Positions 15,663 to 64,000 of a stretch of DNA of 64,000 nucleotides are shown here, piece by piece (within the stretch, counting starts at the first letter, position 1; each line of letters opens with the position of its first letter). Source of the DNA: Vitiosangium sp. GDMCC 1.1324. Lineage in GTDB: Bacteria; Myxococcota; Myxococcia; Myxococcales; Myxococcaceae. The notes under the pieces were generated by a model that was given only the letters and a program-made list of their open reading frames with translations, did not search any database and was not told the origin of the DNA. The stretch lies in the NCBI RefSeq assembly GCF_003044305.1, contig NZ_PZOX01000005.1, positions 579,493 through 643,492 of the forward strand. Direction: 5' to 3'. The position numbers and the translations under genes were made by a program.

Positions 15663-16211
15663 ATGTCGATGACCCCGGTTCCCCCCGAGATGAAGAGACT
15701 CGTGCCGTTCGAGATGGCCCTGCGCGAGGCCGGCATGAGCTACCCCGAGGTGACCGAGGACTTCCCGTGGGGGCACCGGACGCTCAAGGTGAAGGGCAAG
15801 GCCTTCATCTTCATGGGGCTGAGCACCGAGGGCTTCTCGCTATCCGTGAAGCTGCCGGAGTCGAACGGCGCGGCCCTGATGCTGCCGTTCGTGCAGCCGA
15901 CGGGGTACGGCCTGGGCAAGAGTGGCTGGGTCTCCGCCAACTTCGGCGCGCGAGACACGCCCCCGCTCGACATGCTGCGCAAGTGGCTCGACGAGAGCTA
16001 CCGCGCGGTGGCCCCCAAGAAGCTCGTGGCGCAACTCGGCGGCACCACGGCGCCGAAGACGGATAAGCCGGAGGCTGCGCCCGCCAGGACCCGGAGCGCA
16101 CCGGCGCGGAAGTCCGCACCGGCCGCGGCGAAGAAGCCCGCCGCGAAGAAGGCCACCCCGAAGAAAACGGTGGCAAAGAAGACGGCCGGTGCGAGGGCCC
16201 GGCGCGCCTGA
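15663..16211 (+). CDS. MmcQ/YjbR-family DNA-binding protein with histone-H1-like Lys/Ala/Pro-rich tail
   Basis: ATG at 15663 ([13 protein letters not shown]...) within ORF 15402..16211. The ...[18 protein letters not shown]... core matches the MmcQ/YjbR family. The C-terminal [18 protein letters not shown] tail is H1-like. Confidence 0.7.
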
Positions 16212-16227
16212 GGCTCGAAGTGGCGCT

Positions 16228-16249
16228 CACTCGGAGTCGCCTCCGAGTG
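16228..16249. terminator. candidate bidirectional terminator hairpin between convergent genes
   Basis: Perfect 9-bp inverted repeat cactcggag-tcgc-ctccgagtg between the MmcQ-like gene (+) and hpt (-). Confidence 0.4.
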
Positions 16250-16278
16250 AAGCGTGCTTCTGGAGAGAGCGCGAGGGA

Positions 16279-16812
16279 CTACTTCCCCTTCATCACGCCG
16301 ATGAAGGACAGGTTGCGGTAGCGCTCGGCGTAGTCGAGCCCATAGCCCACGACAAAGACGTCGTCGATGACGAAGCCCTTGTAGTCGATGGGAATCTGAG
16401 TGCGAGCGCGCGCCGGCTTCTCCAAGAGGGAGCAGACCTTGAGGGACGCTGGGTGGCGGGCCCGCAGGTTCTCCAGCAGGAAGCTCATGGTGAGCCCGGT
16501 GTCGATGATGTCCTCGATGACGAGCAGGTGCTTGCCCGCCATGGGCTTGCTCACGTCGGTGGTGATGCGCACCTCGCCCGTCGTCTCGGTGCCGCCCTGG
16601 TACGAGGACACTCCGAGGAACTCGATCGTCAGCGGCAGATCCACGTAGCGCGCCAGGTCCATGGCGAAGAATGCCGAGCCCTTCAGCACGATGACGAGCG
16701 TCAGCTCCTTGCCCTGGTAGTCACGGGTGATTTGAGCGCCCAGCTCGCGCACGCGCGCCTGGAGCTTCTGCTCATCGATGTGGATGCCGACGTCCTGCTC
16801 GTAGAAAGCCAC
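16279..16812 (-). CDS. hpt: hypoxanthine phosphoribosyltransferase
   Basis: 177 aa; LLVIEDIIDTGLTMSF is the PRPP-binding motif of HGPRT. GTG start at 16812, preceded by a gaggtagga RBS-like sequence. Confidence 0.9.
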   Translation of the reverse strand: MAFYEQDVGIHIDEQKLQARVRELGAQITRDYQGKELTLVIVLKGSAFFAMDLARYVDLPLTIEFLGVSSYQGGTETTGEVRITTDVSKPMAGKHLLVIEDIIDTGLTMSFLLENLRARHPASLKVCSLLEKPARARTQIPIDYKGFVIDDVFVVGYGLDYAERYRNLSFIGVMKGK

Positions 16813-16822
16813 GGTCCTACCT

Positions 16823-17638
16823 CTACACGTACGCGTTGTTCATGATCTCCCCGAAGCCGCCGCCACCGGGGACGATGTACTGCCGGTCATCCAGCCCCCG
16901 CTCCTTCTCCCACAGCTCGCCGGGCACCGTGCCGAACACCTCCGGCGGTGACAGCCCGCGGTCCAGACGCAGCGCGTACACCACCACATCCGGATGCTCG
17001 CGGGAAATCCTCCGCAGGAACTCGGGGGTGACGATCAGGTTGAGGCTGAGGATGCGCCGGGGAGTGCCGGGCACCTTCTCCTTGTACATGGACACCGCTG
17101 TGCACAGGCTGCCGCCGGTGGCGCCCATGGGGTCCGGGAAGAGGACGATGGCATCGTCGATGTCCCCGCCGATCTTCGCCCCGCCGATGTTCGACCCGAC
17201 CACCGTCTCCTTGGCGTCGATCATCCGGCTCATGATGATGTGGTCCTGGCGCACCAGCGCCGGGTCCACCGTGGTGTTGAGCAGATCGTACGTCACCTGC
17301 GAGGGCAGCGTGCCGGCGCGGGCGATGTTCACCGTCACCGCGCGCACGTCCGGGTCGATGACCTCGCCCTGGTACATGCCCTGAGGCGTGTGATCGATCA
17401 TCCGCGTGGGCAGGGCCACCATCTTGCGCGGGAACTCGGCGTTGATGACGGTCTTCACCAGGTCCGTGTAGAGCAGCGCCACCAGCCGGTTGATCTCCGG
17501 CTGCACGGTGCCCTTGGCGCACAGCTTCGCCAGTTGCGACAGCAGGAACGGGTTGCCCACCAGGTGCACGTTGGCGCCATACCGGTGGGGCATCTCGCTC
17601 AACTGGAAGGGGACGTTGGCGTAGAGGGTGTCGCGCAT
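16823..17638 (-). CDS. upp: uracil phosphoribosyltransferase-family protein
   Basis: IARAG, DPMGATGGS and YIVPGGGGFGE correspond to the UPRTase ILRAG / DPMLATGGS / YIIPGLGDAGD motifs. It is longer than E. coli Upp (271 vs 208 aa). Confidence 0.8.
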   Translation of the reverse strand: MRDTLYANVPFQLSEMPHRYGANVHLVGNPFLLSQLAKLCAKGTVQPEINRLVALLYTDLVKTVINAEFPRKMVALPTRMIDHTPQGMYQGEVIDPDVRAVTVNIARAGTLPSQVTYDLLNTTVDPALVRQDHIIMSRMIDAKETVVGSNIGGAKIGGDIDDAIVLFPDPMGATGGSLCTAVSMYKEKVPGTPRRILSLNLIVTPEFLRRISREHPDVVVYALRLDRGLSPPEVFGTVPGELWEKERGLDDRQYIVPGGGGFGEIMNNAYV

Positions 17639-17657
17639 GGCGGGGCCTCGGAGGGCT

Positions 17658-18260
17658 TCACAACTTGAACAACTCGAGCGTCTGCGGAGGCGTGGCCTCG
17701 GTGGGCTCGGCGCGGTGGCACTTGCGGCAGCGCGCCTCGTAGGCCCCGGCGGCGCCCACCACCACCCGCTCCCCGCTGTCCACCAGACGCTGCGAGCGGT
17801 TGGCCGGATTTCCGCACACCACGCAGATGGCCAGCTGCTTCGTCACGTACTCGGCGATCGCCAGCAGTTGCGGCATCGGCTCGAAGGGACGTCCCTGGTA
17901 GTCCTGGTCCAGTCCCGCGACGACGACGCGCATCCCCCGGTTGGCCAGTGCTTCACACACCGTCACCACCTCGGCGCCGAAGAACTGCACCTCGTCGATG
18001 CCCACCACCTGGGTACGGGGAGACAGGTGAAGGAAAATTTCTTCAGCCCGTTCGATGGGGATGGAGGTCAATTTCAACTGGGAGTGGCTGACGACCTGGG
18101 TCTCGTCGTAGCGGGTGTCCAGCTTCGGTTTGAAGACCTGGACCACCTGCTTGCCGTACACCGCACGTTTGATGCGGCGGATCAGCTCCTCCGTCTTGCC
18201 GGAGTACATCGAGCCGCAGATGACCTCTATCCACCCGATATCTGTGGGAAATTGATGCAC
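17658..18260 (-). CDS. tdk: thymidine kinase
   Basis: ICGSMYSGKTEELIRR is the Walker A of Tdk; ...VVGIDEVQFF...; C-terminal zinc ribbon CVVCG...CRKCH. The ORF extends to 18329; the GTG at 18260 (VHQFPTDIGW...) gives the canonical length. Confidence 0.85.
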   Translation of the reverse strand: MHQFPTDIGWIEVICGSMYSGKTEELIRRIKRAVYGKQVVQVFKPKLDTRYDETQVVSHSQLKLTSIPIERAEEIFLHLSPRTQVVGIDEVQFFGAEVVTVCEALANRGMRVVVAGLDQDYQGRPFEPMPQLLAIAEYVTKQLAICVVCGNPANRSQRLVDSGERVVVGAAGAYEARCRKCHRAEPTEATPPQTLELFKL

Positions 18261-18432
18261 GAGCAGGACTCGATCGGGGTCTGTGCGGGAGCGCGGGTCT
18301 CCTCTGTCACGCCCCTCCTGGCACGTCAACTTTCAAAATCCCCCCACTTCGCGCGGCGCCCGCCCGCCCTCGCCCTGCCACGTTGGCAAGCATCTTGAAG
18401 AACCCCGCCCGGATTCCAACGGGGAGGTTCGG

Positions 18433-18795
18433 GTGGCGGCGACGACTCAAGAAACGCGTTGGGCAGGTATCGAGGGAGCTTCCTTTCACATCTCTCCCGC
18501 GGCGGTCCTGCTGTTGGTGCTCAACCTGCTGGATGGGCTTTTCACCCTCACCTTTTTACAGCTGGATGCGGCCGAGGAGCTCAATCCGCTGATGCGGCTG
18601 GCCTACGAGCACTCGCCCCTGGCCTTCATGGGCGTGAAGCTCGTCATCGTGAGCCTGGGGCTGACGCTGCTGTGCCTGCACCGCTCCATGCGCCTGAGCC
18701 AGCGGGCGATCCAGGCAGGGGCCGCGCTCTACACCGTCATTGACATCTACCACCTGGCGTTCCTGGCCCACATGTGTCACCGAAGCGTTGGTTGA
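18433..18795 (+). CDS. DUF5658-like small membrane protein
   Basis: GTG at 18433, 6 nt after ggggagg. Two to three TM helices (AAVLLLVLNLLDGLFTLTFL..., GVKLVIVSLGLTLLCL...). The longer ORF from 18283 has an implausible Arg/Pro-rich leader. Confidence 0.55.
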   Translation: MAATTQETRWAGIEGASFHISPAAVLLLVLNLLDGLFTLTFLQLDAAEELNPLMRLAYEHSPLAFMGVKLVIVSLGLTLLCLHRSMRLSQRAIQAGAALYTVIDIYHLAFLAHMCHRSVG

Positions 18796-18885
18796 CGCAC
18801 AACAAGCCCCGACAGACTTGATTTTCCGGGTCGGTCTGTCTCAGTCTGCCTGCTAGCTCGGACCTCAGGGGTCCGGGGGGGGACC

Positions 18886-19194
18886 ATGAACATCACCGAC
18901 GTCAAGGTGTACCCGGTCGACGAGGATAAGCTGAAGGCCTACGTGACCATCACCTTGGACCACTGCTTCGTCATCCGGGATCTCAAGGTAATTCACGGCG
19001 CGTCTGGCCTGTTCATCGCCATGCCGGCCAAGCGCCGGAAGGACGGGACGTACAAGGACATCGCCCATCCGCTCAACGCCGACACGCGCAACCAGATGGA
19101 GCGCACCATCCTGCTGGAGTACGAGCGGCACCAGCACCAGCAGACGGCAAACGGGGGGGCGAGCTCCTTCCTGGTCGCTGCCGAGCACGACTGA
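18886..19194 (+). CDS. spoVG: septation protein SpoVG
   Basis: MNITDVKVYPVDEDKLKAYVTITLDHCFVIRDLKVIHGASGLFIAMPAKRRKDGTYKDIAHP is near-canonical SpoVG. Confidence 0.9.
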   Translation: MNITDVKVYPVDEDKLKAYVTITLDHCFVIRDLKVIHGASGLFIAMPAKRRKDGTYKDIAHPLNADTRNQMERTILLEYERHQHQQTANGGASSFLVAAEHD

Positions 19195-19261
19195 GCACCG
19201 GGTCGGACGGTCCGGTGGAAGGGGCTTCCCTTCCGCCACGGGGCGCGCTAGTAGCGCGCCC

Positions 19262-20212
19262 ATGCAGCCGCGCGACTTCAAGGTGTTCACCGGAAGCTCC
19301 AACCCGGGTCTGGCCCACCGGATCTGCGACTACCTCAAGCGTCCGCTGGGCAAGGCGCACGTAGGCCGCTTCTCCGATGGAGAAATCCACGTGGAGATTG
19401 GCGAGAACGTGCGCGGACTGGACGTCTTCATCGTCCAGTCCACCTGCCCTCCGGCCAATGATCACCTGATGGAGCTGCTCATCATCTGCGACGCGCTCAA
19501 GCGCGCGAGCGCCGGCTCCATCAACGCGGTCATCCCGTATTACGGGTACGCCCGGCAGGACCGGAAGGTGGCACCGCGCACGCCCATCACCGCCAAGCTG
19601 GTGGCGGACATGCTCGAGGTGGCGGGCGCCACGCGAGTGGTGTCCATGGACATGCACGCGGGGCAGATCCAGGGCTTCTTCAACATCCCCTCGGATCACC
19701 TCTACGCCTCGCCGGTGTTCCTGGAGGACCTGCGCAAGAAGTTCCCCGACACCCAGGACCTGGTCATCGTGTCGCCGGACGCGGGCGGCGTGGAGCGGGC
19801 GCGTGCCTATTCCAAGCGGCTCAACTGCGGCTTCGCCATCATCGACAAGCGCCGGCCGCGGCCCAACTCCTCCGAGGTGATGAACCTCATTGGAGACGTG
19901 AAGGGCAAGGACGCGGTGCTGGTGGACGACATGGTGGACACCGCGGGCACGCTCACCCAGGCGGCCGCCGCGCTGAGGGAGCGGGGCGCGCGCCGGGTGG
20001 TGGCCTACGCTGTCCACCCCATCCTCTCCGGACCCGCCAACCAGCGCCTCCAGGAGTCGGTGCTGGATGAGGTCGTCTTCACGGACACGGTCCCCCTGTC
20101 GCCCGCCGCCCAGGCCACCGGCAAGGTGCGCGTGCTCACCACCGAGCGCCTCTTCGGCGAGGCCATCGCGCGCATCCACCGCGCCGACTCGCTCAGCTCC
20201 CTCTTCGTCTGA
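19262..20212 (+). CDS. prs: ribose-phosphate pyrophosphokinase
   Basis: 316 aa. ...VIPYYGYARQDRK... and ...VLVDDMVDTAGTL... are the PRPP synthetase signatures. Confidence 0.95.
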   Translation: MQPRDFKVFTGSSNPGLAHRICDYLKRPLGKAHVGRFSDGEIHVEIGENVRGLDVFIVQSTCPPANDHLMELLIICDALKRASAGSINAVIPYYGYARQDRKVAPRTPITAKLVADMLEVAGATRVVSMDMHAGQIQGFFNIPSDHLYASPVFLEDLRKKFPDTQDLVIVSPDAGGVERARAYSKRLNCGFAIIDKRRPRPNSSEVMNLIGDVKGKDAVLVDDMVDTAGTLTQAAAALRERGARRVVAYAVHPILSGPANQRLQESVLDEVVFTDTVPLSPAAQATGKVRVLTTERLFGEAIARIHRADSLSSLFV

Positions 20213-33606: not shown

Positions 33607-35829
33607 ATGCAACGAAGAGGAAACCATTGGAGCTCACTACTGGCGCCGTTGCTCGGCATCATGTTGTGGACGGGTTCCGCGGCGGGCGCGGACGCCAGGC
33701 ACGCGGAATGCCCACCGAAGCCGCTGGTGCCGGCCTCACGAGACACGATCTCGGCCAGCATGCTGAATGCGCTCGCGGTGCACCCGGATGGCACCGTCTG
33801 GGCCTGGGGCAACAACCAGGAGGGCCAACTCGGGGATGGAACCACCGAGACCCGGTACGCGCCGCAGCGGGTGAAGAATCTCTCGGACGTGGTGGCCGTG
33901 GCGAACGGCGAATTCCACAGCCTGGCACTGCGCCGGGACGGCACCGTCTGGGCCTGGGGCAACAACTCCTTCGGCCAGCTCGGCACCGGTCTGCCGGGAA
34001 GAAACCTCACTCCGGTCCAGGTTCCGGACCTGACGGATGTGGTCGCCATCGAGGCAAGTGCCTACTTCTCGCTGGCACTGCGCCGGGACGGCACCGTCTG
34101 GTCCTGGGGCGACAATGGCTACGGCCAGCTCGGTGATGGGACGAAAGACATGCGGTCCTCGCCCGTGCGGGTGCAGGGACTGGAGAACGTGGCGGACATC
34201 GCCGCCGGCTACCGCCACAGTCTGGCAGTGGACCAGGATGGCACCGTCTGGTCCTGGGGCCACAATGGCTCCGGCCAGCTCGGTGACGGGACGACCGCGC
34301 AGCGCAACACGCCCGCCCCGGTGCCGGGCCTGACGGACGTGGTCACCCTCGAGGCGGGAAACTTCCACTCGCTGGCACTGCGCCAGGACGGCACCGTCTG
34401 GGCCTGGGGCCACAATGGCTACGGCCAGCTCGGTGATGGGACGACCACGCAGCGCAACACGCCCGCCCCGGTGCCGGGCCTGACGAACGTGGTCACCCTC
34501 GAGGCGGGGGACTATCACTCGCTGGCACTGCGCCAGGACAGCACCGCGTGGTCCTGGGGCTTCAATGTCCTCGGCCAGCTCGGTGATGGGACGACCACTC
34601 ATCGCAACACGCCCGTACAGGTCTCGAAGCTCGAGGACGCGGTGGCCATCGGCGCGGGCAGCAACCAATCGCTGGCCATGCGCGCCAATGGCACCCTGTT
34701 GGGCTGGGGAGACAACTCCATGGGCCAGCTCGGGACGGGCTCCAACTTCCGAGACACCCCCGTGCGGCTCAAGGCCGTGAAGCATGGAGTGACCGCCTCG
34801 CTCACCCTCCATGCCCTCGTGCTGCGCGAGGATGGCACCGTGTCGTCCTGGGGCTTCAACCTCGATGGCCAGCTCGGGGATGGGACGAAGTCCACGCGCG
34901 CCGAACCGGGACAGGTGCTCGGTATCGCGGACGCGGTCGCCGTGGAGACCGCGAGGTCCAACTCGTTCGTGCTGGGCTCGGACGGCACCGTGTGGGCCTG
35001 GGGCAGCAACTCCTCCGGCCAGCTCGGGGATGGAACGCGCACCTCCCGGATCACCCCCCTGCCCGTGCAGGGATTGACGAACGTCACCGCCCTGACGAGC
35101 AATGGGGATCATGTCCTGGCGTTGCGCCAGGATGGCACGGTGTGGAGCTGGGGCGGCAACACCGCTGGCCAGCTCGGAAACGGAACGACGAGCCCCAGTC
35201 TCACGCCCGCCCAGATCCAGGGCCTGTCGGACATCGTGGCCGTCGCGTCCGGCTCCTTCCGCTCGATGGCGCTGCGCCGCGACGGCACCGTGTGGGCCTG
35301 GGGCGCCAACAACTTCGGCCAGAACGGAGACACAACGACGAGCCGCCATCTCACGCCCGTCCAGGTCCAGGGTCTGTCGGACGTCGTGGCCATCGCGACC
35401 GACTACGGCCACTCGCTGGCGCTGCACGCCGATGGCACCGCGTCGGCCTGGGGCTACAACAACTATGGTCAGCTCGGGGACACGTTGGAGACCAGCCGAA
35501 GCATCCCGGCACGAGTACCGGGCCTGACGAACGTGTCGAGCATCGCCGTGGGGAGCCTGCACAGCCTGGCACTGCGCGAGGATGGGACCGTCTGGGCCTG
35601 GGGCTACAACGGGTATGGCCAGCTCGGTGATGGAACCCTGGCGCCCCGGCACATGCCAGCACCCGTCCCGGGGCTGAAGCACATGAGGGCCATCGCAGCG
35701 GCTGGCGACAACTCCCTGGCCATCCGCAAGAATGGCGAGCTGTTCAGCTGGGGGAGCAACTGGTTCCTCACGATTGGAGATGGAGTGGGCTTCGCCCACA
35801 CCGTCCCGGCGCCTGTGCTGATGCCATAG
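33607..35829 (+). CDS. secreted RCC1-repeat (beta-propeller) protein
   Basis: Signal peptide, then about 14 tandem ~50-aa RCC1 repeats (DGTVWAWGNNxxGQLGDGTT...). About 150-bp periodicity is visible in the DNA (ctggcactgcgcc[gag]ggacggcaccgtctgg recurring). Confidence 0.85.
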   Translation: MQRRGNHWSSLLAPLLGIMLWTGSAAGADARHAECPPKPLVPASRDTISASMLNALAVHPDGTVWAWGNNQEGQLGDGTTETRYAPQRVKNLSDVVAVANGEFHSLALRRDGTVWAWGNNSFGQLGTGLPGRNLTPVQVPDLTDVVAIEASAYFSLALRRDGTVWSWGDNGYGQLGDGTKDMRSSPVRVQGLENVADIAAGYRHSLAVDQDGTVWSWGHNGSGQLGDGTTAQRNTPAPVPGLTDVVTLEAGNFHSLALRQDGTVWAWGHNGYGQLGDGTTTQRNTPAPVPGLTNVVTLEAGDYHSLALRQDSTAWSWGFNVLGQLGDGTTTHRNTPVQVSKLEDAVAIGAGSNQSLAMRANGTLLGWGDNSMGQLGTGSNFRDTPVRLKAVKHGVTASLTLHALVLREDGTVSSWGFNLDGQLGDGTKSTRAEPGQVLGIADAVAVETARSNSFVLGSDGTVWAWGSNSSGQLGDGTRTSRITPLPVQGLTNVTALTSNGDHVLALRQDGTVWSWGGNTAGQLGNGTTSPSLTPAQIQGLSDIVAVASGSFRSMALRRDGTVWAWGANNFGQNGDTTTSRHLTPVQVQGLSDVVAIATDYGHSLALHADGTASAWGYNNYGQLGDTLETSRSIPARVPGLTNVSSIAVGSLHSLALREDGTVWAWGYNGYGQLGDGTLAPRHMPAPVPGLKHMRAIAAAGDNSLAIRKNGELFSWGSNWFLTIGDGVGFAHTVPAPVLMP

Positions 35830-55807: not shown

Positions 55808-56266
55808 TCACACCCCCTCGGCCACAGGAGCCGGCTGCGGAGAAACCCGGGTGAACTCGCGCGGCAGCACGGGCGGCGGCTGCTGGCGCATCTGGCCCGA
55901 GCGGCGGATGCGATTGAAGACGTACAGGTTGAAGAAGTGCATCGCCCCCAGCACGACCATCACCTTGCCCACCTTGCCGCAGACCAGCTCGATGACCTCC
56001 TGCACCGTCCAGATGGTCTGGTACTCCTTGAGCGACAGGGCAACGTACCCGATGTTCATCAGGTAGAAGCCCACCACCAGCAGGTGGTTCACCGAATCCG
56101 CCAGCCGCTCCTTGCCCAGGAAGGCATCGTGCAGGAAGTGCGAGCCGTTGCGTTGCAGCGTCTTCGCCACCCAGATCGTCAGCGTGATGCTCACGAGCAG
56201 GTAGAGCAGGTAGGCAGCCACCATGAACTGGCTCGACACGGGGGTCACCAGCGCGTTGGGTTCCAT
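55808..56266 (-). CDS. small integral membrane protein
   Basis: 152 aa; four TM helices. Stop/start overlap with the downstream DCC gene. Confidence 0.55.
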   Translation of the reverse strand: MEPNALVTPVSSQFMVAAYLLYLLVSITLTIWVAKTLQRNGSHFLHDAFLGKERLADSVNHLLVVGFYLMNIGYVALSLKEYQTIWTVQEVIELVCGKVGKVMVVLGAMHFFNLYVFNRIRRSGQMRQQPPPVLPREFTRVSPQPAPVAEGV

Positions 56267-56421
56267 GACTCGTCTCCCTCGGAGAGCGCGGCCGCCCGGG
56301 GCTCCAGTGCCCCTCCTGGGTTGGCGCCGCCCTCCCCTTTCATCAGGGAGTACCGGAAGGAATTTTCGCGGTTGCGGGGTGCCCGCTCATTCACACGGCC
56401 CGGATGTAGGCAGGGTATCGG

Positions 56422-57096
56422 TCACATGCTCGCGGCTCGGAGCTTCGCGATCCACTCCCGGATTTCCTCATTGGTCCTCCGAGCCGCGACTCCCTCCTGG
56501 AACATCAGGAAGTCGAAACGACCTTCCACGATCATGCCCATCAGCGCCCGGTCGGCGGCGATGATCTCCGGCACCTCCCAGGGAAAGACGGGCCATGTAC
56601 CGCGATCCTCACTGAAATCGGGCATCTCGTAGATGAACTCCAGATAGCGGGCGTAGGTGTCGAAGAATCGGTCCACATTGGAGGCAATGGGGAGTGCGTA
56701 GATGTCTTCGTAGGGGTCGACCTTGACGACCGGTTGGAGGCCCTGTGCATCGGCCAGGCTCGGCACCGTGGCGTAGCAATAGGACGAGGCATCCCGGCAT
56801 CCAAAGATGAGAAGGGATCGGAAGGGCTCGGGCCAGTAGGGCTGAATCTCCTCGTTCGCCATGAGGATTCCATTCACCTGCTCATCACAGGGTTCCACAA
56901 GAAGATCGAAGTCGAGATAAAGCCCGCCCAGTCGCGAATAGAAGGTCGCCAGCATCGGGTCGAAGGGTCGGCCCAGGAGTCGCGTGCCCGCGGTTGGTGC
57001 ACCTTCCCAGGGTTTTCGAATCTCGGCTCGGATGGGGTACTTCCCGCAGGCTGCCAGCAGCCTCTCGAGTCCAGGCAATGACATTTCGTTCATCAT
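56422..57096 (-). CDS. candidate immunity protein B' (cytoplasmic, ~224 aa), paralogue of 58929..59603
   Basis: ATG-ATG at 57096/57093 (MMNEMSLPGLERLL...), 14 nt downstream of the A' stop. No signal peptide; acidic. About 89% identical to B, with substitutions clustered at aa 50-100. Loose SUKH/SMI1-like pattern (LP..L....G..P, FY.RLGG). Confidence 0.55.
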   Translation of the reverse strand: MMNEMSLPGLERLLAACGKYPIRAEIRKPWEGAPTAGTRLLGRPFDPMLATFYSRLGGLYLDFDLLVEPCDEQVNGILMANEEIQPYWPEPFRSLLIFGCRDASSYCYATVPSLADAQGLQPVVKVDPYEDIYALPIASNVDRFFDTYARYLEFIYEMPDFSEDRGTWPVFPWEVPEIIAADRALMGMIVEGRFDFLMFQEGVAARRTNEEIREWIAKLRAASM

Positions 57097-57110
57097 GCGC
57101 CTCTTTCGTC

Positions 57111-58805
57111 TCACCTCGCGACCAGGGCACGGACATCAGCCAGCGCCGCCGCTGTAGCCCTTTCGAGCAGAGCGTCTGACTGGCTCGGCTCGTAGACCTT
57201 GTTGAACCAACGCTCGAAGTGCCGCCGGGTGACGGCCGCTATCTGCTGAACCTGCTCGGGACTGGCCTTGTCGCCAGCCTCCATACGAAAGGCATTCCAC
57301 ACTCTGTTGATACCCTCATGAACGGGCTTTCCCAGTGCCTTGAGGTTGGCAGCAGCGTTGATGTCCAACTCGGGGAAGAGGTGGGCATACTCCAGGGGAA
57401 TGAGGTGGTGGACGTCGTATCGTCCCCAGGCGCCTCGAAGCACTCCATTCAGTTCAGGATAGAAGACCCCATAGAAATCGTCTTGAGCCTTGGCCCTGAG
57501 CGCATCCTTGGCCTTCTTGTCCAATTTGACGGTGAGCGACTGCTCCATGCGCCGCAGGAGTTGGGTGAGTTCGTTGCGCTCGGCGGCGGAGAGGCATTCG
57601 AAGCCCTCCGTCTCCACCTTCACGAAGAGCCGCCGCAACAGTTCCTGGTCCGCGCGCCCCGCCCGAACGAGTTGCGTGCGCAACCAGCGCATCCCCGCGG
57701 CGCCTCCCCGGGTCGCCACCCGCATCACCGAGGGCGCCACCGCTTCGAAGGCGACGTGCAGGCCCTTGCCCACCAGTCCCCCGATAACGCATAGGGCCAC
57801 CTGCTCCAAGGTGAAGGCGCCCGCCAGCTTCACCGAGTCCACCATCTCCTCACGGTAGTGGTGGAAGATTTGTGCGTGCAGCAGGCGGTACTCGCGCAGC
57901 ACGTCCTCTCCCGCTTCATCCACCGGCTCCGGCCGGAGCGTCTCCGCCCGCTCCACCCTCCAGTGGGAGGTGGCGCTCGTCCCTCCGTGCATCCCGGACA
58001 GTTCCAGCCGCACAGTGCGTGGGCCCAGTCCGCGCATGAAGGGCAACAGGGTCAGGGTGAGTGCCTCGGCCACCCGAGCGTCCGCTGGGCGCACCGTGCC
58101 ACCTCCAGCGGCGTGGTAGGGCCCCATCTCCCAGCCCGTGAGCCGGTCGTCCTCCAGCGAGAGCTCCACCCTCATGCGCGCCGAAGCACCCGCGGGCACC
58201 TGGAGCAGGCGCACCACCTGCTTCGCCATGGCCTGCACGGCGGAGAGCGCCCTGGACGAATAGCCCGTGCGCCGCGCTGGCAGCTTTCTCGCCTCCGGGG
58301 GCGCATCCATGGGGAGTGCCTCATAATCCACCCGCCAGCGGCTCTGCTCCCGGTGCAATGTGAAGCCGAGGGCACCTGTACGAGTCTCGGCGAGCGTGAA
58401 GAGCAACTCTCGCAGCCCGCCCGTGAACGCCTCCGCCTTCGTCGGCTGGCCCGCCTCTCCTCCAACCGCCCTCCGACGGACGGACAGCAGCGTGAGGGCC
58501 CCACGCTCGGCCCAGAAGGTGAACTCCAGTACCGAGCCCACCTGCCCCTCTCCGCTGGCCACTGCCCACATCTGCCCCAGCGCCCACTCGACCTCGGCCC
58601 TCCGAGCCCCGGCTTCCTCAACCCATTCGTCAGCGGATGGCGAGGCGCTCGGGTTCGCGGAGACGAGGGTGGCCTCGCTTGGAAACGACGCACTGGCCGG
58701 CAGGGCGAATCCTCTCCCGTTCTCGTGCTGTGTCGTGGCGCACCCCTGCACCATCAGCATCGCGAGCCCCACCGCCACGGCCCGCCAGCACGCCCTGCGC
58801 GTCAT
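57111..58805 (-). CDS. lipoprotein with C-terminal HNH/EndoVII-like nuclease domain (candidate polymorphic toxin A')
   Basis: 564 aa. MTRRACWRAVAVGLAMLMVQGC is a lipoprotein signal. Last ~130 aa: ...RYDVHHLIPLEYAHLFPELDINAAANLKALGKPVHEG... has HH, Asn and His spaced as in the HNH/EndoVII fold (AHH/GHH/SHH-type toxin nucleases). The N-terminal 427 aa are ~99% identical to the paralogue; the C-terminus ~77%. Confidence 0.65.
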   Translation of the reverse strand: MTRRACWRAVAVGLAMLMVQGCATTQHENGRGFALPASASFPSEATLVSANPSASPSADEWVEEAGARRAEVEWALGQMWAVASGEGQVGSVLEFTFWAERGALTLLSVRRRAVGGEAGQPTKAEAFTGGLRELLFTLAETRTGALGFTLHREQSRWRVDYEALPMDAPPEARKLPARRTGYSSRALSAVQAMAKQVVRLLQVPAGASARMRVELSLEDDRLTGWEMGPYHAAGGGTVRPADARVAEALTLTLLPFMRGLGPRTVRLELSGMHGGTSATSHWRVERAETLRPEPVDEAGEDVLREYRLLHAQIFHHYREEMVDSVKLAGAFTLEQVALCVIGGLVGKGLHVAFEAVAPSVMRVATRGGAAGMRWLRTQLVRAGRADQELLRRLFVKVETEGFECLSAAERNELTQLLRRMEQSLTVKLDKKAKDALRAKAQDDFYGVFYPELNGVLRGAWGRYDVHHLIPLEYAHLFPELDINAAANLKALGKPVHEGINRVWNAFRMEAGDKASPEQVQQIAAVTRRHFERWFNKVYEPSQSDALLERATAAALADVRALVAR

Positions 58806-58817
58806 CGAGGATTCCCT

Positions 58818-58898
58818 TCAGGGCTGCCAGCGCCACAGGTAGAGGCCGAACTCGAGCACCGGGGTGTCAGCATCAGGGCGAGCCTGACCTATATCACC
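58818..58898 (-). pseudogene. frameshifted 3' fragment of the Ser/Thr kinase gene carried along by the duplication
   Basis: Aligns to kinase codons for ...LMLTPPVLEFGLYLWRWQP* (61328..61403) with a 1-nt deletion (ggggtg vs ggcggcg) and substitutions. Lies between A' and B. Confidence 0.75.
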
Positions 58899-58928
58899 GG
58901 CTCGCGGGAGAGTTGGGCAGAGTATCCG

Positions 58929-59603
58929 TTACGTGCTCGCGGCCCGGAGCTTCGCGATCCACTCCCGGATTTCCTCGTTGACCCTCCGAGCCGCGACGCC
59001 CTCCTGGAACATCAGGAAGTCGAAACGACCTTCCACGATCATGCCCATCAGCGCCCGGTCAGCGGCGATGATCTCCGGCACCCCCCAGGGAAAGGTGGGC
59101 CATGTACCGCGATCCTCAGAGAAATCGGGCATCTCGTAGATGAACTCCAGATAGCGGGCGTAGGTGTCGAAGAAGCGGTCCACATTGGAGGCAACGGGGA
59201 GTGCGTAGATGTCTTCGTAGGGGTCGACCTCGACGACCGGTTGGAAGCCCTGTGCATCCGCCAGGCTCGGAACCGTGGCGTAGCAATAGGCTGACGCCTC
59301 TTCGCCCCCGAAGACGAGAAGCGACCGGAAGGGCTCGGGCCAGTAGGGCTGAACCTCCTCGTTCGCCATGAGGATGCCATTCACCTGTTCATCACAAGCA
59401 TTGACATAGAGGTTGAGGTCGAGCAGGAGCCCACCCAGTCGTGAATAGAAGGCGGCCAGCATCGGGTCAAAGGGTCGGCCCAGGAGTAGCGCGCCCGCGG
59501 TTGGTGCACCTTCCCAGGGTTTTCGAATCTCGGCTCGGACGGGGTACTTCCCGCAGGCCGCCAGCAGCCGCTCGAGTCCAGGCAATGAGATTTCTTTCAT
59601 CAT
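58929..59603 (-). CDS. candidate immunity protein B (cytoplasmic, ~224 aa)
   Basis: ATG-ATG at 59603/59600 (MMKEISLPGLERLL...), 15 nt after the A stop and preceded by gagggaagag. The ORF extension to 59717 is rejected because it overlaps A. Confidence 0.55.
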   Translation of the reverse strand: MMKEISLPGLERLLAACGKYPVRAEIRKPWEGAPTAGALLLGRPFDPMLAAFYSRLGGLLLDLNLYVNACDEQVNGILMANEEVQPYWPEPFRSLLVFGGEEASAYCYATVPSLADAQGFQPVVEVDPYEDIYALPVASNVDRFFDTYARYLEFIYEMPDFSEDRGTWPTFPWGVPEIIAADRALMGMIVEGRFDFLMFQEGVAARRVNEEIREWIAKLRAAST

Positions 59604-59617
59604 GTGTCTCTTCCCTC

Positions 59618-61315
59618 TCACCTTACAACCAGGGCACTGACATCCTCCAGCGCCGCCGCCGTGACCCTTTCGAGCAGAGCGTCTGACTGGCTCGGCTCGT
59701 AGAGTTTGTTGAACCAACGCCCGAAATGTCGCTGGGTGATGTCCACCATCTGTCGAACCTGTTCGGGACTGGCCGTGTCACCCGCTTCCTTGCGGAAGGC
59801 ATTCCATATCTTGTTGATACTCCCATGAACGGGCTTGCCTAAGGCCTTGAGGTTGGCGGCAGCGTTGATGTCCAACTGCGGAAACAGGTGGGCATACTCC
59901 AGGGGGACAAGGTGATGGACGTCGTATTGTTTTCCCTCAACGTCCCTCAATACCCTCTCCAGCTCGGGATGGAAGGCCCCGTAGAAATCAGCTTTAGCCT
60001 TGGCACGAAGCGCGTTCTTGGCATCACGGTCCAATTTGACGGTGAGCGACTGCTCCATGCGCCGCAGGAGTTGGGTGAGTTCGTTGCGCTCGGCGGCGGA
60101 GAGGCATTCGAAGCCCTCCGTCTCCACCTTCACGAAGAGCCGCCGCAACAGTTCCTGATCCGCGCGCCCCGCCCGGACGAGTTGTGTGCGCAACCAGCGC
60201 ATCCCCGCGGCGCCTCCCCGGGTTGCCACCCGCATCACCGAGGGCGCCACCGCTTCGAAGGCGACGTGCAGGCCCTTGCCCACCAGTCCCCCGATAACGC
60301 ATAGGGCCACCTGCTCCAAGGTGAAGGCGCCCGCCAGCTTCACCGAGTCCACCATCTCCTCACGGTAGTGGTGGAAGATTTGTGCGTGCAGCAGGCGGTA
60401 CTCGCGCAGCACGTCCTCCACTGCTTCGTCCACCGGCTCCGGCCGGAGCGTCTCCGCCCGCTCCACCCTCCAGTGGGAGGTGGTGCTCGTCCCTCCGTGC
60501 ATCCCGGACAGTTCCAGCCGCACAGTGCGTGGGCCCAGTCCGCGCATGAAGGGCAACAGGGTCAGGGTGAGTGCCTCGGCCACCCGAGCGTCCGCTGGGC
60601 GCACCGTGCCACCTCCAGCGGCGTGGTAGGGCCCCATCTCCCAGCCCGTGAGCCGGTCGTCCTCCAGCGAGAGCTCCACCCTCATGCGCGCCGAAGCACC
60701 CGCGGGCACCTGGAGCAGGCGCACCACCTGCTTCGCCATGGCCTGCACGGCGGAGAGCGCCCTGGACGAATAGCCCGTGCGCCGCGCCGGCAGCTTTCTC
60801 GTCTCCGGGGGCGCATCCATGGGGAGCGCCTCATAATCCACCCGCCAGCGGCTCTGCTCCCGGTGCAATGTGAAGCCGAGGGCACCTGTACGAGTCTCGG
60901 CGAGCGTGAAGAGCAACTCTCGCAGCCCGCCCGTGAACGCCTCCGCCTTCGTCGGCTGGCCCACCTCTCCTCCAACCGCCCTCCGACGGACGGACAGCAG
61001 CGTGAGGGCCCCACGCTCGGCCCAGAAGGTGAACTCCAGTACCGAGCCCACCTGCCCCTCTCCGCTGGCCACTGCCCACATCTGCCCCAGCGCCCACTCG
61101 ACCTCGGCCCTCCGAGCCCCGGCTTCCTCAACCCATTCGTCAGCGGATGGCGAGGCGCTCGGGTTCGCGGAGACGAGGGTGGCCTCGCTTGGAAACGACG
61201 CACTGGCCGGCAGGGCGAATCCTCTCCCGTTCTCGTGCTGTGTCGTGGCGCACCCCTGCACCATCAGCATCGCGAGCCCCACCGCCACGGCCCGCCAGCA
61301 CGCCCTGCGCGTCAT
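59618..61315 (-). CDS. lipoprotein with C-terminal HNH/EndoVII-like nuclease domain (candidate polymorphic toxin A)
   Basis: 565 aa. ATG at 61315 is 12 nt after the kinase stop, with an aagggaa RBS. The C-terminal domain ...QYDVHHLVPLEYAHLFPQLDINAAANLKALGKPVHGS... retains the HH / N / H residues but differs from A' at ~30 of 134 positions plus one indel. Coding GC is lower over 59620..60030. Confidence 0.65.
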   Translation of the reverse strand: MTRRACWRAVAVGLAMLMVQGCATTQHENGRGFALPASASFPSEATLVSANPSASPSADEWVEEAGARRAEVEWALGQMWAVASGEGQVGSVLEFTFWAERGALTLLSVRRRAVGGEVGQPTKAEAFTGGLRELLFTLAETRTGALGFTLHREQSRWRVDYEALPMDAPPETRKLPARRTGYSSRALSAVQAMAKQVVRLLQVPAGASARMRVELSLEDDRLTGWEMGPYHAAGGGTVRPADARVAEALTLTLLPFMRGLGPRTVRLELSGMHGGTSTTSHWRVERAETLRPEPVDEAVEDVLREYRLLHAQIFHHYREEMVDSVKLAGAFTLEQVALCVIGGLVGKGLHVAFEAVAPSVMRVATRGGAAGMRWLRTQLVRAGRADQELLRRLFVKVETEGFECLSAAERNELTQLLRRMEQSLTVKLDRDAKNALRAKAKADFYGAFHPELERVLRDVEGKQYDVHHLVPLEYAHLFPQLDINAAANLKALGKPVHGSINKIWNAFRKEAGDTASPEQVRQMVDITQRHFGRWFNKLYEPSQSDALLERVTAAALEDVSALVVR

Positions 61316-61327
61316 CGAGGATTCCCT

Positions 61328-62773
61328 TCAGGGTTGCCAGCGCCACAGGTAGAGGCCGAACTCAAGCACCGGCGGCGTCAGCATCAGAACGAGTCCGGCC
61401 CACACCACCGGCTCGCGGGAGAGTGGACGCTGGCGCCGCCACGCCTCCAGGGTCGAGACGCACAGAAGGTAGAGCGCCGACAGCTCCAGCAGCCCTCCCA
61501 CCAGCGGCATGAAGGGAGGCATCGAGATGCCCGCGCCCCACTCCAGCACGCCTCGCAGGGCGAACAGGCCCGAGCAGGCAATCGTCACCCCCAGGAAGGA
61601 CCGGCCCTCGTGCAGCGGCACCTCCGGCGCGGGCGCATCCAGTCCCTCGTGGCGCCAGTGTCTGCGCAACAAGCCATACGCCGCCAACGCCACCGCGAGC
61701 CCCGCCACCGCGCCGAGGATGGGGCCCGTCTCGAAGCGCGCCCGTGTCACCCACCGGCCATCCGCCAGTCTCGCCGCGGGCTGCATGGTGAGGGGATCCA
61801 ACTCGTGCGGGGCCAGCACCCGCGGCGTCACCGACACGACGAGCGCCCACAGCACCAGTGCGCACGCCACCGCCTGCAACACCGCCACCGCCCTCAGCCA
61901 GATGGCCTCGTCCGGAGGCAGGGCCGCCTCCGCCGCTCCGTCCGCGAGCCGCCGCAGGTCCAGGCCCAGTGCCTGCGCGCTCGCGTAGCGCCGTGACGGT
62001 TCGAGCGCCACCGCCCTGCGCACCATCGTCCCGAGCGCCCCCGTCAACGCGGGCGCCCCCGCCACCGGTGGCCGGCCCGTCACCATCTCGTGCAGCAGCA
62101 CCCCCACCGCGTACACGTCCATGCGCGGGTCCGGCGGCGCTCCGGCGAGGGCCTCGGGAGCCATGTACTCAGGCGTCCCCACCACCGCGTGCGCGGCGGT
62201 GAGCGTGTCTCTCGGCCCCTCCTGCCGGACGATGCGGGCAATCCCGAAGTCCGTCACCTTCACCCGGCCCTCTCCGTCCATCAGGATGTTGGCCGGCTTG
62301 ATGTCCCGATGCACCACGCCTCGCGCATGCGCGTAGGCCAGCGCGTCGCACACCTGGAGCGCCACGCGCACGGCCTCCGCCGGAGGCAACGGCAGTACCT
62401 GTGCCAGGGAGCGGCCCTCCACCAGCTCCATCACCAGGAAGCGCTCGCCCTCCTCGTCACCAAAGTCGTGCACCCGGACGATGTTCGGATGATCCAACAG
62501 TGCCAGGGCCCTCGCCTCCCGCGCGAAGCGGGCCTGCGCCTCGGCGCTCGAGGCGGCCTCCCCCGCGAGGAACTTCACCGCCACCGGCCGATCCAACCGC
62601 ACATGGCGCGCCCGGAAGACACGGCCCATGCCTCCCCGGCCGATCTCCTCCTCCAGCTCCAGCGAGCCGATGCGCCCCGGATCCTCCATGTCCTCTCCCA
62701 GGAGGCAGCCGGGACATACCGCCAGGCGCTGGCCATCCACGGGCGTTCCGCAGCGCGAGCAGCGGGCACTCAT
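61328..62773 (-). CDS. Ser/Thr protein kinase with N-terminal CxxC zinc-ribbon and C-terminal multi-TM region
   Basis: 481 aa. CSRCGTPV...CPGC; kinase subdomains GRGGMGRVFRA, VAVKFL, HRDIKPANIL, DFGIA, GTPEYMAPE. Four C-terminal hydrophobic helices. Its ATG overlaps the ECF sigma stop (ATGA). Confidence 0.9.
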   Translation of the reverse strand: MSARCSRCGTPVDGQRLAVCPGCLLGEDMEDPGRIGSLELEEEIGRGGMGRVFRARHVRLDRPVAVKFLAGEAASSAEAQARFAREARALALLDHPNIVRVHDFGDEEGERFLVMELVEGRSLAQVLPLPPAEAVRVALQVCDALAYAHARGVVHRDIKPANILMDGEGRVKVTDFGIARIVRQEGPRDTLTAAHAVVGTPEYMAPEALAGAPPDPRMDVYAVGVLLHEMVTGRPPVAGAPALTGALGTMVRRAVALEPSRRYASAQALGLDLRRLADGAAEAALPPDEAIWLRAVAVLQAVACALVLWALVVSVTPRVLAPHELDPLTMQPAARLADGRWVTRARFETGPILGAVAGLAVALAAYGLLRRHWRHEGLDAPAPEVPLHEGRSFLGVTIACSGLFALRGVLEWGAGISMPPFMPLVGGLLELSALYLLCVSTLEAWRRQRPLSREPVVWAGLVLMLTPPVLEFGLYLWRWQP

Positions 62774-63492
62774 CGCTTCAGCACCCGGAGCAGCTCGGCG
62801 AGCTCGGCCTCCGCCTCCTCCGGCCCTCCCACCGTGTCCGCCACTTCCTCGCGCACCAGCTCGCGGTAGCGCACCCGCGCCCGGTGCAGGAACGTCTTGA
62901 GCTGCGGCAGGGACATGCCGTGTGCCTCCGCCGCCTCCCGGTAGCTCGGCGGCTCACCCGGGCGGAAGAACTGGAGCACCAGGTCGAAGGGGCCCTTGCG
63001 CGCTCCACTGTCGTACTCGGCCTTCAGCCGCTCCAGGGCGCGCTCCATGACGCTCGAGGCCCATTCCCGCTCGAAGGCCTCGTCCGGGCCCTGGGCATCC
63101 TCGGAGGCAATCCGCTCCGCCAGCTCGAAGTCCAACGGCAGGGCCACCACGCCCCCTCCGCGCCGCGCGGCACTCTCCCGCTCGTAACGGTGGGCGAGGT
63201 GGTTGCGCGCGGCCGTCAGCAGGTAGCCCCGCAACCGGCCCTTCTCGGGGCTCAGCCGCTCGAGGAAGTCGTGCTCCAACAGCCGCACCAGCAAATCCTG
63301 CACGGCGTCGCGCGCGGGCTCCGCGTCCAGCCCCTGGCGGCGCATGAAGACGTAGAGAGGGCGCCAGTAGGTGCTCAGCAACGACTCGAGTGCCGCGCGG
63401 CGGGCCTCCGGCGATACCCGCGCCGAGCGGATGAGGGTCCAGCGCGTGGGTGGAAAGGAGCCCGGTCCTTCCTCTCGCGGATCTGCGCTCAT
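62770..63492 (-). CDS. ECF (group 4) RNA polymerase sigma factor
   Basis: ATG at 63492 (MSADPREEGPGSFPPTRWTLIRSA...). The ORF to 63642 is rejected. Sigma-70 region 2 (...LESLLSTYWRPLYVFMRRQGLDAEPARDAVQDLLVRLL...) and region 4 (...SYREAAEAHGMSLPQLKTFLHRARVRYRELV). Confidence 0.85.
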   Translation of the reverse strand: MSADPREEGPGSFPPTRWTLIRSARVSPEARRAALESLLSTYWRPLYVFMRRQGLDAEPARDAVQDLLVRLLEHDFLERLSPEKGRLRGYLLTAARNHLAHRYERESAARRGGGVVALPLDFELAERIASEDAQGPDEAFEREWASSVMERALERLKAEYDSGARKGPFDLVLQFFRPGEPPSYREAAEAHGMSLPQLKTFLHRARVRYRELVREEVADTVGGPEEAEAELAELLRVLKR

Positions 63493-63726
63493 GGAAGAGG
63501 TTCTAGCGCAAACAGGGGGAGTCCTTCCCGGGGGGCGGGCACCTGACCTCCAGTGCACATCTACTCCGGGCTCTGCTCGCTGCCGGACACGGCTCCTCCG
63601 CCCGCCGAAGCGGCGCATCCGTTTCACTGGAGGAAAAGGCACCAGCGCATTGCCCGGACACCTTCCGCTCTCTAGCTTCCCGCACCCGAAGCCACACCCC
63701 CAGTCGCAGTCACGCGAGGACGAACC

Positions 63727-64000
63727 ATGACCCCTGCCTCTCAGATGAGCATGCCGATGCAGCCCGGAATGAACCCGATGATGGGCGGCATGCCCATGAT
63801 GGGTATGAACCCGATGATGGGCATGAATCAGATGCCGATGATGGGCATGAACCCGATGATGGGCGGCATGCCCATGCCCATGCCCATGATGGGCGGCATG
63901 CCCATGCCGATGATGGGCATGAACCCGATGATGGGCGGCATGCCCATGCCGATGATGGGCATGAACCCGATGATGGGCGGCATGCCCATGATGATGCCCA
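63727..64000 (+). CDS. Met/Gly/Pro-rich repeat protein, 5' part (continues beyond window)
   Basis: ATG at 63727, 8 nt after gagga. MTPASQMSMPMQPGMNPMMGGMPMMGMNPMMGMNQMPMMGMNPMMGGMPMPMP... Strongly G/C-ending codons on the plus strand. The antisense His-rich frame has T-ending codons, so the plus frame is preferred. Absent from the ORF track because no stop lies inside the window. Confidence 0.6.
   Translation, partial: MTPASQMSMPMQPGMNPMMGGMPMMGMNPMMGMNQMPMMGMNPMMGGMPMPMPMMGGMPMPMMGMNPMMGGMPMPMMGMNPMMGGMPMMMP

Follow-up and report, generated by a model that had tools for sequence, protein, structure and literature searches.

Two tandem lipoprotein toxin-immunity units in Vitiosangium sp. GDMCC 1.1324: probable retention of two specificity types beside a recently homogenised N-terminal part

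The window considered here is a stretch of 64,000 nucleotides of contig NZ_PZOX01000005.1 from Vitiosangium sp. GDMCC 1.1324. It contains, on the minus strand, two direct tandem repeats (56409-58913 and 58916-61424) that are 93.1% identical over 2514 columns (blastn). Each unit of 2.5 kb is composed of a toxin open reading frame (ORF; 564 or 565 amino acids), a 14-nt spacer and a 224-amino acid immunity ORF. The explanation that we favour, with a probability of about 0.68, is that an old tandem duplication carries two ancient, co-inherited specificity types and that the N-terminal parts of the two toxins were homogenised recently. The sharp identity breakpoint seen within the toxin genes would then be the edge of the homogenised tract.

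The following scheme can be proposed. Each of the two tandem operons would encode an outer-membrane lipoprotein toxin and its cognate cytoplasmic immunity protein of the SUKH type. Delivery would likely occur by cell-to-cell outer-membrane exchange, as for the SitA toxins. The C-terminal domain of the toxin, hereafter the tip, would then enter the recipient cell, where it would cut nucleic acid if not bound by the matching immunity protein. Specificity would be located in toxin residues ~430-497 and immunity residues ~51-110, with at least two ancient types present across Vitiosangium and Archangium. A recent gene conversion or unequal crossover would have rendered toxin codons 1-429 and the 56 nt upstream nearly identical, older events would have homogenised both ends of the immunity genes and, between lineages, whole tip-immunity cassettes would be swapped at the same junction. 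The tract would stop at the N-terminal boundary of the mobile domain either because the region beyond is too diverged for conversion or because selection keeps it distinct. Carrying both cassette types, one cell would possess two toxins and two immunities.

Identity and composition along the tandem units

The change in identity within the toxin genes is abrupt. In copy 1, the final mismatch on the tip side stands at 57518 and the adjacent stretch, 57519-57647, is 100% identical to its counterpart; the breakpoint is thus at 57518/57519, corresponding to 60028/60029 in copy 2. The maximum chi-square statistic identifies a breakpoint at 57519, with a value of 130.7 against at most 21.5 in 1000 permutations, and Fisher's test on the mismatches of the toxin N-terminal part (NT) versus its C-terminal part (CT) gives 8e-41. 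The original prediction, made from the DNA letters of the window, had placed the two breakpoints at 57520-57530 and 60030-60040, which is right within about 10 nt. It had also described a switch from ~99% to ~78% identity, borne out by the two tests and by the values of 98.9% and 79.6%, as well as a 14-nt spacer, which is correct.

The identity between the two copies was determined segment by segment. Following the direction of transcription, it is 79.2% in a relic of the 3′ end of a kinase gene (58862-58913 versus 61372-61423), 98.9% in the toxin NT with its upstream nucleotides (57519-58861, 15 differences over 1343 columns), 79.6% in the toxin CT (57111-57518 versus 59618-60028, with a rate of synonymous differences, dS, of 0.62), 92.0% in the spacer and the 5′ part of the immunity gene (56936-57110), 78.7% in the middle of this gene (56781-56935 versus 59288-59442) and 94.4% in its 3′ part (56409-56780). 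Three levels of identity, 99%, 92-94% and 79%, therefore coexist inside one unit, which implies several events of different ages.

Substitution rates (Nei-Gojobori) show the same partition. Toxin codons 1-425 have a dS of 0.027 and a rate of non-synonymous differences (dN) of 0.004; for codons 426-565 the values are 0.63 and 0.14, with a dN/dS ratio of 0.22. Across the breakpoint, dS differs ~23-fold and dN/dS is near 0.2 on either side. In the immunity gene, dS is itself a mosaic, with 0.11 in codons 1-50, 0.56 in codons 51-110 and 0.095 in codons 111-224. At the protein level, the tips of both copies are 76% identical, and the differences between copies are concentrated in toxin residues 430-462 and in immunity residues 51-105. 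The 5′ half of the immunity gene had been held to be the most diverged part of the unit; strong divergence is in fact confined to codons ~51-110, the first 50 codons being 90% identical in protein sequence and the 3′ half 94%. Neither a uniform divergence along the unit nor an equal GC content at third codon positions (GC3) in the two segments is observed (dS of 0.027 versus 0.63; GC3 of 0.85 versus 0.70). As for the proposal that the pattern is not the result of drift after duplication, it agrees with the ~23-fold jump of dS at a constant dN/dS of ~0.2; however, the duplication in question would be old and not recent.

This age is indicated by the kinase relic, which lies beyond the nearly identical tract. 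The relic shows 11 differences over 53 columns (P=1.7e-11 at the NT mismatch rate). Because it is only 79% identical to its source, the duplication is considered to be old and, since the tract is bounded on both sides, the 1.34-kb identical stretch is regarded as a patch homogenised later. The locus thus displays the pattern of concerted evolution, with identities of 79%, 98.9% and 79% succeeding one another across 58913-57111 and with trees that differ between segments (see below). Taken with the mosaic structure of the immunity gene, the kinase relic speaks for an old duplication.

The base composition of the cassette is also distinctive. GC3 is 0.85 in the NT, 0.70 and 0.69 in the two CT and 0.75 and 0.76 in the two immunity genes; it is 0.85-0.92 in the flanking genes. 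The overall GC content of copy 1 versus copy 2 is 0.596 versus 0.572 for the CT and 0.599 versus 0.615 for the immunity gene. In all 5 syntenic Archangium orthologues, GC3 is 0.85-0.89 in the NT and 0.66-0.73 in the CT. Copy 2 had been singled out as less GC-rich. The string quoted in support, 59911-59953, indeed has 49% GC, but copy 1 and the orthologues show an equal drop. Being equal in both copies and family-wide, the GC drop was rejected as a sign of recent import. The GC3 deficit of the cassette could reflect a module shared with organisms of lower GC content that has not fully ameliorated, a weaker selection on codon usage or a conversion less biased towards GC. The Rhs locus L053, which carries the same tip domain, has 53.5% GC.

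The toxin, its tip and the two cassette types

From modelling, the toxin is predicted to consist of a lipoprotein signal, an N-domain (residues ~58-290), a helical middle region that is hydrophobic in part (~293-425) and an HNH-like tip of ~135 residues. In the AlphaFold2 model, the N-domain (residues 58-290) is confident, with a pLDDT of about 90, the middle region is helical with low confidence, and the tip is poorly modelled. The same parts (lipoprotein signal, N-domain, helical middle region and HNH-like C-terminal toxin domain) are recognised in copy 2. Cys22 of the lipobox (sequence VQGC-ATTQHE) is invariant in the family alignment. Neither of the two inner-membrane retention signals is present, since Ala is found at +2 and Glu at +7. 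In the SitA literature, a lipobox cysteine lacking Lys at +2 and Ala at +7 leads to predicted outer-membrane sorting (cited in PMC5562445).

In the tip, H466, H467, N483 and H496 do not vary, either within the family or in the homologous tips found on other carriers. A profile search of the PDB aligns this motif to the H-N-H motif of the pyocin AP41 DNase, non-significantly (E=6.4). Pfam and NCBIfam scans with both toxins, with the tips alone and with all members of the toxin alignment gave nothing significant. At E ≤0.01, no toxin matches the HNH-type families of Pfam, one member reaching HNH_2 with E=0.087. PDB sequence searches with full-length and tip profiles were likewise without significant result, and Foldseek found no PDB match at E ≤0.001 with a toxin model that is poor outside residues 58-290. 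As no Pfam, NCBIfam or PDB sequence match is available, it is only the motif that suggests the tip to be a nuclease. The immunity protein has a SUKH alpha/beta fold. Scans of both immunity proteins and of the members of the immunity alignment with Pfam and NCBIfam returned nothing significant, including for SMI1_KNR4, which was approached by 1 of 26 members at E=0.095.

The tip is found outside this family. An exhaustive profile search retrieved 474 proteins, many of which are matched by their C-termini only, over profile positions ~422-540. Such tip-only matches, with E values from 1e-14 to 1e-21, occur on Rhs-type, PT-HINT, PT-TG and eCIS_core/DUF4157 carriers, and one tip carrier, succeeded by a small ORF of another kind, is located in an orphan array that lies behind an Rhs gene. 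Because the same domain ends Rhs, PT-HINT, PT-TG and DUF4157 proteins, the tip appears, from sequence comparison, to be a genuine mobile polymorphic-toxin domain. On heterologous carriers, it starts at profile position 421-426. The breakpoint, between residues 429 and 430, falls at the N-terminal edge of the domain (toxin residues ~420-428, ...SLTVKLD).

Other combinations of the N-domain were observed. Lipoproteins of ~250-300 amino acids made of the N-domain only (residues ~55-290), with neither middle region nor tip, occur at L037, L041, L043 and L044 (Citreicoccus, Corallococcus, Myxococcus). In the metagenomic proteins P0226 and P0247, the N-domain, middle region and tip stand behind DUF4157/eCIS_core, which replaces the lipoprotein signal. 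In P0321, also metagenomic, DUF4157 and the N-domain are joined to a peptidoglycan-amidase-like C-terminus. These three fusions suggest that the N-domain is a pre-toxin module reusable outside lipoproteins. All full-length members have a tip of the same family, with a CT identity of 31-84% to the window copies. Exchange of unrelated tips on one carrier was not found, P0321 with its amidase-like C-terminus being the single exception.

Word-indexed protein searches yielded 86 full-length toxin clusters and 207 immunity clusters, and a repeat search with the family profile recovered the same 86. The named toxin and immunity clusters all belong to Myxococcota (Archangium, Melittangium, Myxococcus and Pyxidicoccus), to which Corallococcus is added when named homologues overall are considered. 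No homologue from M. xanthus or M. fulvus is found among the named matches, and the toxin had no tblastn match in 72,556 plasmids, among them pMF1. Genomic comparison was carried out on 48 loci (designated by L numbers). In every one whose sequence reaches past the toxin, an immunity homologue directly follows. The order sigma factor, kinase, toxin, immunity, small membrane protein, DCC1 is shared by five Archangium genomes (L002, L004-L007) and by L052, a metagenome contig that is the nearest relative found (~85% DNA identity) and carries a single copy, of type 1. Further tandem toxin-immunity pairs exist at L014, L018 and L026. Orphan modules, which the original prediction had suggested looking for in related genomes, are indeed there: supernumerary immunity genes are common, with two or three in tandem at L002, L004, L005, L011, L017, L019-L021, L026 and L027, and a partial tip accompanied by an immunity gene is present at L018.

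Trees of successive segments group the window copies differently (support in brackets). The two copies are sisters in the NT (100%), in immunity nt 1-150 (100%) and in immunity nt 331-672 (97%). With immunity nt 151-330 (100%), copy 1 falls into a clade with L052, the first immunity gene (immA) of L002 and the second (immB) of L004 and L005, and copy 2 into another one with L002 immB, the immA genes of L004, L005 and L006, L012 and L015. Similarly, with toxin nt 1288-1490, copy 1 groups with L052, L002, L003 and L007 (100%) and copy 2 with L004-L006 (81%). The middle segment of immunity gene 1 is closest to that of L052 (90% DNA identity). In all nine syntenic or close loci, the type of the tip is that of the adjacent immunity gene, and the Archangium genomes carrying two immunity genes have one of each type. 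In the immunity 3′ part, immA and immB of L005 are sisters.

Toxin codons 430-497 and immunity codons 51-110 are thus of two types that are common to several species and inherited together. The remainder of both genes groups by genome and evolves in concert within genomes. The cassette types predate the Vitiosangium-Archangium split and are exchanged between lineages at a fixed junction. The two variable segments would form the toxin-immunity interface. A sorting of all tips into two types by the 33 sites that distinguish the copies was also attempted; it failed, most alleles appearing mosaic.

The junction is used repeatedly. In the tandem pair of L014, protein identity is 93.8% in the NT versus 65.9% in the tip; in that of L026, it is 91.3% versus 68.9%. 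In both cases, the switch occurs at the aligned ...EPLD position. Between L002 and L004, with a single toxin each, identity passes from 89-98% to 64-87% at the same junction, with a dS of 0.20 in the NT and 0.88 in the CT. The comparison of L004 (A. gephyra SDU49) with L006 (A. lansingense) gives another picture, where the cassette has 88-96% identity, mostly above that of the flanks (66-96%, most windows at 72-87%). The cassette common to these two loci comprises the tip and the immunity 5′ part (window-equivalent 57940-56780), whereas in the toxin NT and the immunity 3′ part the identity of most windows does not exceed 66-87%. It looks like a recent inter-species transfer.

Competing histories

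Another history, clearly less probable than an old duplication with later homogenisation, is that the whole unit was duplicated recently and that a foreign tip-immunity cassette then entered one of the copies, with an upstream crossover at 57519/60029 (C-terminal displacement). Several observations agree with it. Exchange between lineages is real in the family, as illustrated by the L004/L006 cassette and by the contrast between NT and CT dS in the L002/L004 comparison; L052, the nearest relative, has a single unit, which is of type 1; in copy 2, the type-2 cassette clusters with alleles from Archangium; the tip domain moves between classes of toxins; and the orphan immunity genes, found in both orders in Archangium, are compatible with displacement. 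However, a recent duplication is contradicted by the 79% identity of the kinase relic, given its P value under the NT mismatch rate. Moreover, immunity codons 1-50, which lie between two diverged blocks, are sisters within the genome (100%), a situation that a single imported patch does not fit, and the 92-94% identity of the immunity flanks corresponds to neither 99% nor 79%. Finally, no recent import can be read from the GC drop, which is the same in the two copies and throughout the orthologues.

A number of points nevertheless count against the history that we favour, or against the mechanism proposed with it. The kinase relic is only 53 columns long. With L052 in single copy, an ancient duplication needs losses in other lineages. 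At L002, the order of the immunity types (1 then 2) is the reverse of that in the window, L004 and L005. The single-copy L052 and the reversed order of L002 favour import, and this order fits cassette import better than differential loss. The trees are neighbour-joining trees with bootstrap on short partitions, the tree obtained with the C-terminal tip half is not resolved, and, among 60 close homologues, tip types are not cleanly two-fold, many alleles appearing mosaic. On the functional side, AlphaFold2 confidence is low at residues 293-373 and 451-492, with a pLDDT <50 in the tip core, and nuclease activity is proposed with no Pfam, NCBIfam or PDB sequence match, the motif and the E=6.4 pyocin alignment being its sole supports.

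Two further explanations appear very improbable. According to the first, a recent duplication would have been followed by fast diversifying selection on tip and immunity, with no recombination. An arms race is expected at toxin-immunity interfaces, and the differences are clustered in toxin residues 430-462 and immunity residues 51-105. However, dN/dS is 0.21-0.24 in those blocks, where dS is 0.56-1.1 versus 0.03 in the NT, and protein-level selection cannot drive synonymous sites; in addition, each cassette is nearer to alleles from another genus than to the neighbouring copy. The dS contrast and the cross-species clades thus rule this explanation out. According to the second, the mosaic would be only apparent and come from a tandem repeat collapsed or rendered chimeric in the draft genome, a 1.3-kb near-identical repeat being difficult for short-read assemblers and a second Vitiosangium genome for comparison not having been found, but the reading frames are intact in both units, 15 differences are scattered within the near-identical tract, the same pattern is seen in independent assemblies of other organisms (L014, L026), and the deposited record of this genome has the two proteins, on a contig of 719 kb.

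Old duplication with recent homogenisation of the NT leads to a modified view of the exchangeable cassette initially proposed. Co-segregating types, a reused junction and a mobile tip agree with such a cassette; C-terminal displacement by an unrelated domain does not apply, the two tips being 76% identical alleles. Acquisition of tips by recombination is supported by the cassette swaps between lineages, but the sharp edge in the window is best read as the end of an NT conversion tract.

Known systems, layout of the locus and significance

The closest known system is SitA/SitI of myxobacteria, which relies on TraA/TraB outer-membrane exchange, and especially the non-modular SitA4, SitA6 and SitA7. 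Like SitA/SitI, the present family is, as far as named matches go, found in Myxococcota only, has a lipobox with outer-membrane sorting residues and is represented by several paralogous loci per genome. In both cases, ~400 conserved N-terminal amino acids are followed by a C-terminal nuclease-like tip and the immunity gene is directly downstream in the operon; SitI1 is also of the SUKH type. In SitA4, SitA6 and SitA7, the tip is always the same domain within a family and shows allelic variation (PMC8546572); the present family resembles this description, with one tip domain and allelic differences. By its architecture, taxon, lipobox, SUKH-type immunity gene and number of paralogues, the system probably works like the SitA/SitI toxins. 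There are also differences. Unlike SitA, the locus occupies a stable syntenic chromosomal site beside a sigma/kinase pair rather than a mobile element. No Pfam AHH match is obtained here, unlike in SitA4, SitA5-Mf2 and SitA6, for which AHH has been reported (PMC8546572). No similarity is detectable to SitA6/SitI6 of pMF1 (DUF2380, Gmx_para_CXXCG). Membership of SitA6 (pMF1.20) was considered and rejected, BLASTP and hhalign showing no relationship. The orthologues of A. violaceum Cb vi76 and A. gephyra are absent, as judged by lipobox and length, from the published lists of SitA1/2 and SitA3 homologues.

Likeness to contact-dependent inhibition (CDI; CdiA-CT/CdiI) and Rhs systems is found in the sharp identity break at a conserved junction just before the tip, in the co-inheritance of tip and immunity, in the lower GC content of the cassette and in the orphan immunity genes downstream. 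With Rhs, the likeness extends to the very same tip domain, present on Rhs proteins and in an Rhs orphan array. Unlike in CDI and Rhs, the carrier is a lipoprotein and not a two-partner-secretion or type VI secretion system/YD-shell protein; the junction is ...SLTVKLD|KK (E-P-L-D in distant members), and neither VENN nor PxxxxDPxGL is present; the tips that are exchanged represent alleles of a single domain and not unrelated ones; and the second module is a complete toxin gene and not a truncated orphan. Pairs of HNH/Endonuclease VII toxins with SUKH proteins are known, as in the RhsP WHH toxin with RhsPI or in YobL-YobK; HNH-type toxins also include the colicin and pyocin DNases. The HH...N...H motif has a spacing similar to that of H-N-H in these DNases. 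However, no significant match to AHH, WHH, LHH, GHH, HNH_2 or solved structures is obtained, and an Asn stands in place of the last metal-binding His of colicin DNases. As in polymorphic toxins in the sense of Zhang, Aravind et al., an N-terminal trafficking module and a C-terminal toxin domain are combined in one protein, the tip occurs on different carriers, and a downstream immunity gene and orphan modules are found.

The features of the locus are collected in Table 1. The flanking genes are a sigma-like gene and a kinase gene upstream, and a small membrane-protein gene and a DCC1-like gene downstream. A hypothetical protein deposited for Vitiosangium sp. GDMCC 1.1324 matches toxin copy 1 at 100% identity.

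Table 1. Coordinates of the tandem toxin-immunity locus within the 64,000-nucleotide window.
Feature	Position	Strand	Remarks
Toxin gene, copy 1	57111..58805	-	564 aa; ORF list and translation
Toxin gene, copy 2	59618..61315	-	565 aa; ORF list and translation
Immunity gene, copy 1	56422..57096	-	224 aa; middle segment of type 1
Immunity gene, copy 2	58929..59603	-	224 aa, ATG at 59603; SUKH fold; middle segment of type 2
Spacer from toxin stop to immunity start	57097..57110 (copy 2: 59604-59617)	-	14 nt, with AAGAGG-like ribosome-binding site
High-identity tract, copy 1	57519..58861	.	Toxin codons 1-429 and 56 nt upstream; partner of 60029-61371
High-identity tract, copy 2	60029..61371	.	Also covers the final 15 codons of the kinase gene (functional copy)
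Diverged toxin-tip coding region, copy 1	57111..57518	-	Codons 430-564 and stop; type signal in codons 430-497
Diverged toxin-tip coding region, copy 2	59618..60028	-	One codon more: R versus KQ at residue 462/463
Diverged middle block, immunity gene 1	56781..56935	-	About codons 54-105; flanked by 92% and 94% segments
Diverged middle block, immunity gene 2	59288..59442	-	Partner of 56781-56935
Kinase 3′-end relic	58862..58913	-	Last 32 kinase codons, brought along by the duplication; source 61372-61423
Illegitimate duplication junction	58914-58915		Directly after the kinase relic
Ser/Thr protein kinase gene	61328..62773	-	Directly upstream; source of the relic; Pfam Pkinase E=7.6e-54
Predicted catalytic core, toxin 1	57318..57410	-	H466-H467 ... 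N483 ... H496 (DVHHLIPLEYAHLFPELDINAAANLKALGKPVH)
Lipobox VQGC, toxin 1	58740..58751	-	Cys22; +2 Ala, +7 Glu

In the upstream region (window 61316-63642), the stop of the Ser/Thr kinase gene lies 12 nt before the start codon of the copy-2 toxin, and the kinase gene is itself preceded by a sigma-70-like (ECF-type) gene. A regulatory coupling between the sigma/kinase pair and the toxin operon is possible. The order sigma, kinase, toxin, immunity is kept across Archangium and Vitiosangium (L002, L004-L007, L051, L052) and, at the distant locus L014, each tandem toxin-immunity unit also includes a kinase-like gene. At L002, L004 and L005 of Archangium, an additional 1.4-1.8 kb separates the orphan immunity gene from the small membrane-protein gene; the insert of L002 has a 337-amino acid ORF on the opposite strand (11169-12182, minus), and the window, L006, L007 and L052 are devoid of the insert. 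A promoter and terminator scan of 56200-61500 gave nothing above chance, and no further copy of the toxin or immunity gene was found within the window.

With respect to the deposited annotation, the exact protein of immunity gene 1 is not among the database matches, the best being immunity 2 of the same genome (89%), and deposited immunity 2 appears as both a 224- and a 177-amino acid call. Immunity gene 1 may thus be uncalled or differently called in that annotation. Elsewhere in the window, 63766-64000 is repetitive, with repeat offsets of 42, 72 and 114 nt and a plus-strand reading that gives repeats rich in Met, Pro, Gly and Asn, such as MPMMGMNPMMG. Other direct repeats, with offsets of ~150, 75 and 63 nt and 74-92% identity, are located at 33770-34615, 10246-10644 and 11788-12119; they probably represent coding regions with repeats and have no relation to the toxin locus. 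Outside the latter, the 4-kb block of lowest GC content is 16001-20000 (0.657 versus a window mean of 0.692).

Polymorphic toxin-immunity cassettes serve in the discrimination of kin from non-kin in many social bacteria, myxobacteria included. The locus described here cleanly illustrates a bacterial toxin system of a known kind and not of a new one; CDI, Rhs and SitA have made the phenomenon familiar, and it would not surprise a specialist. The locus shows, though, with unusual clarity how specificity can persist next to a delivery part that is homogenised. The same junction is the breakpoint in three independent tandem pairs and in several orthologues present as single copies. The tip is a widespread toxin domain which, with its SUKH-type partner, is nameless in current domain databases. 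The co-segregation of toxin residues 430-497 and immunity residues 51-110 across genera provides a hypothesis for the recognition interface. It may be imagined, albeit tentatively and as a rather doubtful proposal, that the locus represents an undescribed, seventh or further, family of outer-membrane-exchange lipoprotein toxins, centred on Archangiaceae, with an HNH-like tip outside database families and a fixed site behind an ECF-sigma/Ser-Thr-kinase pair, in which at least two ancient types would be maintained by balancing selection while gene conversion erases the other differences. If such a new family under balancing selection were indeed at hand, natural variation would map recognition to about 70 residues of the toxin and about 60 residues of the immunity protein.

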